Shown: positions 4,881 to 5,192 of the stretch, one piece after another
How the letters are laid out: each line of letters begins with the position of its first letter
Position numbering within the stretch: the stretch's first letter is position 1
The notes under the pieces: generated by a model
Seen by the model: the letters and a program-made list of their open reading frames with translations, nothing else
What the model was told of the DNA's origin: nothing
The model's database searches: none
Program-made: the position numbers and the translations under genes
Virus record (IMG/VR): IMGVR_UViG_3300028584_000654
Span: 1-7,347 of that record
DNA length: 7,347 bases
Direction: 5' to 3' (one strand)
Origin: a virus

Positions 4881-5110
4881 CAAAGGTCGATGATTTTCCT
4901 GCAAGCGTCCTGCAGGGCAGAAAGGCGATCATCGAAAACAGTGCTTTCCTGCTGGAAGTCGGACAGCGCGGAACTAAGCTTACGGACCTTGGCCACGAGC
5001 CGAGGATAGTCCTCAATGACGTAAGAAACAGCGTCGGAAGGGTCGCGCCCAGGCGCATAGAGCTTGGCTAGATCGACAAGACGAGAGGGCAAATCAATGG
5101 GCGTTCGCAT
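4880..5110 (-). CDS. Small RHH-like protein with coiled-coil-like C-terminal half (ORF A), 76 aa; apparent paralog of ORF B
   Basis: The ORF-track start at 5149 is a TTG inside the palindrome apex and has no SD. The first ATG (5110-5108) has a weak AGG 8 nt upstream. RTPIDLPSRLVDLAKLYAPGRDPSDAVSYVIEDY fits a strand-helix-helix pattern. It shares architecture and scattered identities with ORF B, for example G/Q-R-x-x-x-x-AV and Y-x-x-x-Y/L-x-x-L. Confidence 0.6.
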   Translation of the reverse strand: MRTPIDLPSRLVDLAKLYAPGRDPSDAVSYVIEDYPRLVAKVRKLSSALSDFQQESTVFDDRLSALQDACRKIIDL

Positions 5111-5192
5111 AATGGGACCTACATTAAATTGAGCCCGGTGCTTGCGCAATTATCCGAGCCCAATTGAACGTAAGTCCTTGATTATGCGAAGC
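5102..5192. other. Putative XerCD-dependent attachment site: two inverted dif-like sites forming a 90-nt imperfect palindrome
   Basis: Site 1 (+, 5102-5129) reads CGTTCGCATAA-TGGGAC-CTACATTAAAT. Against E. coli dif GGTGCGCATAA-TGTATA-TTATGTTAAAT it matches 9/11 in the XerC arm and 8/11 in the XerD arm. Site 2 (-, 5192-5163) reads GCTTCGCATAA-TCAAGGAC-TTACGTTCAAT and matches 9/11 and 9/11, with an 8-nt spacer. The XerC arms form a perfect 10-bp inverted repeat (5104-5113 and 5181-5190). No integrase gene is present in the genome. Confidence 0.65.

Follow-up and report, generated by a model that had tools for sequence, protein, structure and literature searches.

The DNA analysed here is a stretch of 7,347 nucleotides (nt) held in IMG/VR as record IMGVR_UViG_3300028584_000654 (positions 1 to 7,347), henceforth termed the window. 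It contains a circular inovirus genome of 7,092 nt; an exact repeat of positions 1-255 at 7093-7347 reflects sequence read past its own start. Between gene I, which encodes a Zot-like assembly ATPase, and a small open reading frame (ORF) termed ORF A lies an imperfect palindrome composed of two inverted sites that resemble dif, the chromosomal site of the host's XerC and XerD recombinases (XerCD). This palindrome and its probable function as the attachment site of the phage (attP) are the subject of this study.

Gene II (PF05144/PF05155), gene V (PF02303), the major coat protein gene, an ORF of 459 amino acids (aa), a gene VI-like ORF (DUF2523) and gene I/zot (PF05707) follow one another on the minus strand. 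Gene I is followed by the hairpin, ORF A (phrog_13909) and ORF88 (phrog_8031), and a small regulator-like ORF (phrog_5642) is encoded on the strand opposite to the other genes. Scans of the ORFs recovered Pfam and PHROG families for genes II, V, VIII, VI and I. With 1,937 T versus 1,428 A, the coding strand carries the T excess expected of an inovirus viral strand, and the minus strand of the window is taken to be the viral strand. Domains of integrases, transposases or resolvases were absent from the ORFs scanned (18 translations with Pfam, 10 of these with PHROGs). A previous interpretation of the window made from its letters alone, here called the sequence-only reading, had likewise described a genome devoid of an integrase.

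Two inverted dif-like sites downstream of gene I

All coordinates assigned to the palindrome by the sequence-only reading could be reproduced. The sequence TTCGCATAAT at 5104-5113 (plus strand) recurs as its exact reverse complement at 5181-5190, and these are the sole two copies in the window even with one mismatch allowed. Six interior blocks pair between them, an asymmetric bulge sets 1 nt against 3 nt (5114 against 5178-5180), and the apex contains the palindrome TTGCGCAA at 5142-5149. The two dif-like sites lie in inverted orientation, tens of nucleotides apart, with 8-10 of 11 matches per arm. Site 1 (5102-5129, plus strand), distal to gene I, reads CGTTCGCATAA/TGGGAC/CTACATTAAAT and matches the arms of Escherichia coli dif at 9/11 and 8/11 positions around a 6-nt spacer. 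Site 2 (5163-5192, minus strand), proximal to gene I, reads GCTTCGCATAA/TCAAGGAC/TTACGTTCAAT, with 9/11 matches in both arms and a spacer of 8 nt; the arm similarities and spacer lengths claimed earlier were thus borne out. A scan of the window with the full Pseudomonas-type dif (up to three mismatches) returned no intact dif, as expected for a free phage. The individual elements are listed in Table 1.

Table 1. Features of the predicted attachment region and its flanking genes; positions refer to the window.
Feature	Position	Strand	Remarks
Whole hairpin (putative attP), imperfect palindrome, 90 nt	5102..5192	- (viral strand)	between gene I stop codon and ORF A
Predicted XerC-binding arm, gene-I-proximal (top-strand) site, GCTTCGCATAA	5182..5192	-	10/11 match to Pseudomonas-type arm; predicted crossover at 3' edge
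Central region, top-strand site, TCAAGGAC, 8 nt	5174..5181	-	CAA (5178-5180) bulged in fold
XerD-like arm, top-strand site, TTACGTTCAAT	5163..5173	-	9/11 match to TTATGTTAAAT
XerC arm, distal inverted site, CGTTCGCATAA	5102..5112	+	viral-strand complement forms bottom strand of XerC duplex
Central region, distal site, TGGGAC, 6 nt	5113..5118	+	bottom strand of folded central region
XerD-like arm, distal site, CTACATTAAAT	5119..5129	+	8/11 match; pairs with 5163-5173 via two G·T and one C/T mismatch (viral strand)
Upper GC-rich stem and apex	5130..5162	-	5130-5138 pairs with 5154-5162; apex of unpaired GATAAT (5154-5149) and mini-hairpin TGC-GCAA-GCA (5148-5139)
Gene I (Zot-like assembly ATPase)	5193..6467	-	PF05707, E = 2e-16; phrog_197, E = 4e-66; TAG stop adjoins XerC arm of site 2
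ORF A, 76 aa	4880..5110	-	phrog_13909; PHROG match begins at residue 13 of longer ORF

Folding of the viral strand

The single-stranded DNA (ssDNA) fold that the sequence-only reading had proposed as a check gave a stable hairpin for the viral strand, with -26.0 kcal/mol (z = -6.1) and none of 200 shuffled sequences as stable; the plus strand of the window folds with -21.8 kcal/mol (z = -4.5). When 100-nt segments were folded along the whole genome, the hairpin ranked among the roughly four most stable (-23.8 kcal/mol versus a mean of -11.2 and a standard deviation of 4.1). Predicted pairing within the viral, i.e., phage (+), strand generates duplexes of the XerC and XerD arms around a partly unpaired centre. 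This and all further structural evidence is computational, and the relatives used for comparison are non-independent samples.

Conserved architecture and covariation

We fetched loci of related phages and prophages (24 from genomes, 79 from IMG/VR and 10 from metagenomes) and six further contigs (identified by L numbers below); the ten metagenome loci added by a dedicated scan were at most 66% identical. Twenty-nine distinct hairpins from these loci, together with those of phage blackswan219-1 and the cholera phage CTXphi, gave a set of 31. Without exception, the coding strand presents a XerC arm, a long spacer, a XerD-like arm (TTAYGTT...), a GC-rich stem with apex, the XerD-like complement, a short spacer and the XerC complement in this order. 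The top (proximal) spacer measures 8-13 nt throughout, the 8 nt of the window being the shortest and the other 30 hairpins, CTXphi included, having 9-13 nt. On the bottom (distal) side, the spacer comprises 6 nt in 27 hairpins, 7 nt in three (among them CTXphi) and 8 nt in one. The bulge keeps its position throughout: it separates XerC arm from XerD arm and is always on the top strand.

Covariation was analysed in an alignment of the 14 short-class hairpins (A2), for which the consensus fold comprises 31 pairs. Standard pairs occupy 98.4% of its cells, and 17 of the 31 pairs show compensatory double changes. None of 500 shuffled controls reached the observed values, and slid controls were only 30-45% paired. 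Variation is unevenly distributed along the structure. In the XerC-arm helix, seven of eight pairs never vary and the eighth varies on one side only. The helix containing the XerD-like arms and the upper stem covaries around a fixed TTA.G, corresponding to T17, T18, A19 and G21 of the top-strand XerD-like arm, which are invariant in the 14 relatives. An invariant arm joined to a covarying stem is the pattern that a protein-recognised sequence on a structural support should leave in such an alignment. The XerC arm TTCGCATAA also occurs at Pseudomonas junctions, and both XerC arms of the window are intact and identical to those of integrated relatives.

The fold is moreover strand-specific. Four of the five stem mismatches of the window are A/C on the plus strand and become G·T wobbles on the viral strand. 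Viral-strand folds of the 29 hairpins contain 72 G·T pairs versus one A·C among 1x1 mismatches. Alignment A2 holds 47 G·T or T·G cells, spread over 12 pair columns, versus no A·C cell; in one of these columns, 11 of the 14 sequences have T·G. Each of the 14 short-class hairpins folds more stably as viral strand than as complement, the mean difference being 5.3 kcal/mol. For a duplex palindrome there would be no ground for a strand preference. Deamination bias in ssDNA genomes may add to the excess, but the conserved positions of the wobbles argue for selection on the folded viral strand. Possibly, the wobbles keep the single strand foldable while the duplex remains an imperfect palindrome.

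Relatives at the dif site

Pseudomonas phages 36-2 (gene I product 52% identical) and PMBT54 are the nearest named phages. The 36-2 record, which is linear and derived from a prophage, carries TTCGCATAATGT at both its start and its end, the end copy 9 nt past the zot stop codon, and opens with a pair of inverted dif-like sites of its own. Homologues of the gene I product, one cluster of which has 600 member sequences, come almost entirely from Pseudomonas, Stutzerimonas, Aquipseudomonas and Azomonas where a source is named. The sequence-only reading had seen a hint of a xanthomonadaceal or betaproteobacterial host in the XerC arm; the relatives point instead to Pseudomonas and allies such as Stutzerimonas and Azomonas.

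Loci that include host flanks show GGCTTCGCATAA TGTATA TTATGTTAAAT behind gene I or behind a small extra ORF. In L041, two phage copies lie in tandem. At its left junction (attL, ggaTTCGCATAA followed by TGTGCAGACG...), the host XerC arm ggaTTCGCATAA precedes the central region of the phage and its entire hairpin. Where the copies meet, the junction (ggcTTCGCATAATGTGCAGACG) equals the phage attP, and the right junction (attR, ggcTTCGCATAATGTATATTATGTTAAAC) consists of the phage arm followed by the centre and XerD arm of dif. We rebuilt the host dif from the attL and attR junctions of relatives, as a literature search for the literal Pseudomonas dif 28-mer gave nothing; combining L098 (attP) with L100 (attL, attR) yielded the chromosomal site (attB) as GAGTTCGCATAATCTATATTATGTTAAAT, with the host centre TCTATA. 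In the clade nearest to the window phage (L029, L106, L111, L113), GGCTTCGCATAATGTATATTATGTTAAAT is regenerated at the right end.

Across relatives, the XerC arm of the proximal site stays with gene I at attR and the host arm takes its place at attL. The 22 dif-like matches listed for the loci (five mismatches at most) are without exception downstream of gene I and on its strand, so that the crossover falls in site 2. Every relative with a readable junction shows this crossover, and site 1 was never the crossover site. As read from their junctions, L041, L100 with L098, L029, L106, L111 and L113 are prophages at dif with the crossover on the XerC side and dif regenerated at one end. The earlier proposal of a CTXphi-style attP made of two inverted dif-like sites gains support from these relatives, which reside at dif and not in a tRNA gene, as well as from the conserved, covarying and strand-specific fold. 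Its expectation that related prophages be flanked by dif halves also held, with GGCTTCGCATAATGTATATTATGTTAAAT on the right and the host XerC arm plus hairpin on the left.

Tandem prophage arrays at dif are common in the group (L033/L037, L041, L021, L025). One contig (L033/L037, IMGVR_UViG_2908492839_000004) carries four copies of two sequence variants spaced by about 7.2-7.65 kilobases (kb), which points to repeated independent integrations into the regenerated dif. At four loci of Pseudomonas genomes with gene I relatives 45-49% identical to that of the window (L015, L018, L021, L022), dif is located 1.6-2.2 kb downstream of gene I. This distance would fit a PMBT54-like gene order, in which a secretin gene follows gene I; the inverted-site hairpin is present in L015 and L021. 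PMBT54 itself (L002) lacks a dif-like hairpin, which fits the view of its authors, who assumed an episomal life cycle and judged the phage non-integrative, and who also noted 'Tandem' Pseudomonas inovirus prophages from an earlier survey. Lacking the hairpin, PMBT54 was rejected as a model for it.

A further subgroup of gene I relatives (L003, L005, L007, L008, L010, L011, L014, L114, L115) has a conserved GACGTCCCTGTAGCACGTCAGATAA element after gene I instead of a dif-like hairpin. The replacement of one by the other suggests that the module downstream of gene I is exchangeable.

Comparison with known Xer-dependent elements

According to reviews, attP1 and attP2 of CTXphi point in opposite directions at a distance of about 90 base pairs (bp), and the (+) strand of the phage adopts a forked hairpin structure some 150 nt long. 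Recombination of this structure with dif by XerCD proceeds through XerC-only strand exchange, and replication completes integration. The process is irreversible, the duplex prophage being unable to refold, and the use of the single strand is reported as experimentally established.

The window phage shares many of these features. Both phages lack an integrase and carry two inverted dif-like sites downstream of zot or of cargo genes. In the CTXphi sequence itself, the coding strand likewise holds the long-spacer site, in a position proximal to zot and ctxAB, whereas the site with the short spacer is inverted. A fold of CTXphi by the same program (z = -6.7) shows the design of the window, with an arm duplex, a 5'-side bulge, a XerD duplex with a mismatch and an apex, here ACCAT + TGC-GCCA-GCA. 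Common to both are fully paired XerC arms, a bulged centre, a XerD duplex with wobbles or a mismatch, and an ANNAT followed by a mini-hairpin at the apex. The integrated relatives of the window phage also resemble CTXphi prophages, with the hairpin at the left end, a regenerated dif at the right end and tandem arrays. The XerD arms of L095, L098, L015 and L039 (TTATGTTGAGC in the top site; CTATGTTACGC or CTATATTAAGC in the inverted site) are nearly equal to those of attP1 and attP2 (TTATGTTGAGG, TTATGTTACGG), and the XerD duplexes of L095, L098 and L039 show a G·T plus an A/G irregularity as in CTXphi. The resemblances in XerD arms and apex suggest common descent and not only analogy.

The two also differ. 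The hairpin of the window is unbranched and 90 nt long, whereas that of CTXphi is forked and about 150 nt long; the spacers comprise 8 and 6 nt versus 12 and 7; and the dif arms are of the Pseudomonas type (TTCGCATAA) and not of the Vibrio type (TGCGTATTA). Unlike CTXphi, the window phage carries no toxin genes, and its ORF A has a start codon within the distal arm. The relationship between the proteins of the two phages is only remote (phrog_1041 'CTXphi Zot-like', E = 1e-8), and the window site is a prediction from sequence.

Similar attP features of direct ssDNA integration at dif have been described for CUS-1 of E. coli K1 and Ypf of Yersinia pestis (review citing Val et al. 2005). These are non-Vibrio inoviruses like the window phage but have enterobacterial hosts, and the likeness is one of description. 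A Xenorhabdus prophage among our loci (L026) has a hairpin of the same design. VGJphi and the Xanthomonas phages Cf1c, XacF1 and phiLf are also integrase-less inoviruses that employ host XerCD at dif through XerC-catalysed exchange and regenerate dif. They differ in using one duplex site only, which measures about 29 bp and has a short centre, in a reversible reaction, whereas the family studied here has two inverted sites and an over-long crossover spacer. Integron attC sites are likewise folded single-stranded sites at which a tyrosine recombinase exchanges one strand and replication resolves the product; however, the recombinase is IntI, the sequence logic differs (extrahelical bases) and the sites are not of phage origin.

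Proposed mechanism and alternatives

We consider it probable that 5102-5192 constitutes an attP(+) of the CTX type, which adopts its fold in the viral single strand and which host XerCD recombine with dif via XerC strand exchange. We infer a single-stranded substrate from the anatomy of the element and the CTXphi precedent, and we also infer catalysis by XerC only, irreversibility and integration of the window phage itself. Indirect support for such a single-strand route comes from the excess of G·T over A·C on the viral strand (72 versus one) and from the tandem arrays of relatives. In the single strand as packaged or as formed by rolling-circle replication (minus strand of the window), the gene-I-proximal site would provide the top strand and the complement of the distal inverted site the bottom strand. 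Their pairing would create a duplex XerC arm (TTCGCATAA), a centre of 8 nt (top) versus 6 nt (bottom) with CAA as the bulge, and a XerD-like duplex that two G·T pairs hold together and one C/T mismatch interrupts. Host XerC and XerD would bind this dif mimic and synapse it with chromosomal dif. XerC would then swap one strand pair at the border of arm and central region, after TTCGCATAA on the top strand, and the resulting pseudo-Holliday junction would be resolved by replication. The top centre of the window begins with TC and the centre of the bottom site with TG, so that a dif with the centre TCTATA or TGTATA would match two bases on one partner.

The predicted prophage would carry the hairpin and ORF A on the left and, on the right, gene I with a regenerated dif behind it; its attL should be recognisable by CAAGGACTTACGTTCAATTGGGCTCGG beside a host XerC arm. 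As the duplex prophage would be unable to refold, new genomes would have to arise from rolling-circle replication, which tandem arrays may help.

Several points weigh against this proposal. The sequence-only reading had called for a prophage search, and for the window phage itself it came back empty: no integrated copy of the exact phage was found, and a look-up of the exact gene I product returned no record. In the longer, forked P. aeruginosa class of hairpins, both strands are about equally stable. The excess of G·T pairs could be inflated by C-to-T deamination bias in single-stranded genomes, and the sequences compared are kin. The junction sequences are identical for folded single-strand use and for duplex use of the proximal site. 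Finally, the 8-nt top spacer of the window, the shortest of the family, is borderline for canonical duplex use. Spacers in this range are tolerated by some duplex Xer sites, cer for instance, and duplex use of the proximal site would thus be possible for the window phage.

The last two points bear on an alternative of the VGJ type, in which the proximal site alone recombines, as a duplex in the replicative form. The distal site would be no more than the complement that a hairpin needs, and the hairpin would serve packaging, minus-strand origin function or regulation of ORF A. The conserved apex of GANNAT and mini-hairpin, for which Xer recombination has no obvious need, would also be accommodated. 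Yet 30 of the 31 hairpins have a proximal spacer of 9-13 nt, which exceeds what a canonical duplex Xer site allows, and the folded bottom strand offers 6-7 nt, likewise in 30 of 31. In place of a single duplex site with a short centre that functions at both prophage ends, we found two inverted sites and a crossover spacer of 8-13 nt across the family, with which attL would be non-canonical for duplex use. The bulge invariably sits on the top strand, precisely in the gap from XerC to XerD arm. Both sides of the XerC-arm helix keep their sequence, and the other helix covaries. The design is that of CTXphi, in which the single strand is the reported substrate, and a conserved hairpin inside gene I (see below) could serve as packaging signal or origin instead. 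At the level of the family, folding is favoured because of the 9-13-nt top spacers, the fixed bulge position and the invariant distal XerC arm. We therefore regard a VGJ-type site as unlikely.

A still lower probability attaches to the view that the hairpin is only a cis-acting ssDNA signal, for packaging or as minus-strand origin, in an episomal phage whose dif-like arms are inherited remnants. The hairpin is among the most stable structures of the genome, and its conserved apex and its position after gene I are compatible with such a role. In Ff phages, the packaging signal is positioned after the morphogenesis genes, as is the hairpin here. The related PMBT54 was judged non-integrative, but PMBT54 has no hairpin, and a remnant would be expected to decay, whereas neither XerC arm has lost its integrity and both match those of the integrated relatives exactly. 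This makes the view very improbable, although a packaging or origin role in addition to integration is conceivable. Packaging signals mapped by experiment in integrative inoviruses of Xanthomonas are located at the region of the replication origin or beside it, mostly within gene II, and share GGX(A/-)CCG(C/T)G as their consensus. The hairpin differs from these in both consensus and location and was rejected as a signal of that type.

Site 1 alone as a duplex attP in the replicative form, which the sequence-only reading had offered as an option, has the canonical 6-bp spacing but can be dismissed as barely credible, since it would invert the prophage relative to dif and place ORF A instead of gene I beside the regenerated site, against the position and strand of all 22 matches and the retention of the whole hairpin at attL.

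A conserved apical motif

The apex of the hairpin is conserved in its own right. In the 14 aligned relatives, G36, A37, A40 and T41 (GANNAT) are invariant and are followed by a mini-hairpin with a covarying stem, such as TGC-GCAA-GCA in the window (5139-5154, minus strand), GC-GCA-GC in L108, GCT-GATA-AGC in L030 and GCC-TCT-GGC in L095. This motif is common to the window, most Pseudomonas relatives, the Xenorhabdus prophage and CTXphi (ACCAT + TGC-GCCA-GCA, L112:1541-1572). Sigma-70 reads two bases of the -10 promoter element as single-stranded DNA, with a spacing that equals that of the invariant apical A and T, three bases apart. Tentatively, and with more doubt than confidence, the apex may be a second conserved single-strand signal in CTX-type attP, namely a priming site of the RNA polymerase type (minus-strand origin). 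Complementary-strand synthesis would then begin where the integration site folds and would erase the fold.

Relation to described Pseudomonas inoviruses

In a survey of Pf phages, insertion is integrase-mediated and directed to tRNA or tmRNA genes or direct repeats, and dif is mentioned only for other genera. The relatives collected here include 7-kb non-Pf prophages at P. aeruginosa dif, which were not described in the Pf survey or the Xer and integrative-element (IMEX) literature searched. Nor did we find a description of any dif-integrating Pseudomonas inovirus with a folded attP, in a literature library that is incomplete and hence no proof of absence. The mechanism as such is already known, and similar features are reported for enterobacterial phages. 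If the proposal is correct, direct single-strand integration by XerCD is no peculiarity of the cholera phage but would be a widespread inovirus strategy that reaches Pseudomonas. The relatives also provide a rule for prophage borders, with gene I and then dif at the right end and the host XerC arm and then the hairpin at the left. Furthermore, they supply about 30 natural variants of a folded attachment site for the study of XerCD requirements and bring to light the apical motif common to the window and CTXphi.

Neighbouring genes and additional structures

The 459-aa ORF has no family matches but occupies the position of inovirus gene III; it spans the circle junction (1065 to 1, then 7092 to 6778). 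Megablast of the whole genome against GenBank phages gave no match, and scans of the window for tRNA genes and Rfam families gave none. ORF A starts with an ATG (5110-5108, minus strand; MRTPIDLPSRL...) inside the complement of the distal XerC arm (ATTATGCGAACG), an arrangement also found in L108 (1794-1810) and phage blackswan219-1 (L123:1578-1640). The hairpin thus forms the 5' leader of ORF A, and in a prophage the DNA upstream of it would be host sequence. ORF A bears a weak resemblance to the opening gene of phage 36-2; among solved structures, neither ORF A nor ORF88 had a useful match. A scan of 4700-5500 detected no terminator at the hairpin, and a terminator reading was dropped. The same scan returned one promoter-like site with its -10 (CATAAT) in the XerC arm, no more than shuffled sequences yield.

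Two further minus-strand segments fold well below the genome mean, 4513-4612 with -24.6 and 3893-4012 with about -24 kcal/mol. One lies within ORF88 and the other in a non-coding stretch past the regulator-like ORF, where a plus-strand origin might be expected. A second strong hairpin (5262-5328, minus strand, about -25 kcal/mol) is located inside the 3' end of gene I, in an otherwise variable protein tail (..SERSDR..). Its apex AGCGAGCGGAGCGACC is invariant in eight of the ten phages folded (the window, L108, L110, L111, L030, L098, L105 and L089), the closest relatives included, and its stem covaries. This hairpin is a candidate cis element, e.g., a packaging signal or minus-strand origin.

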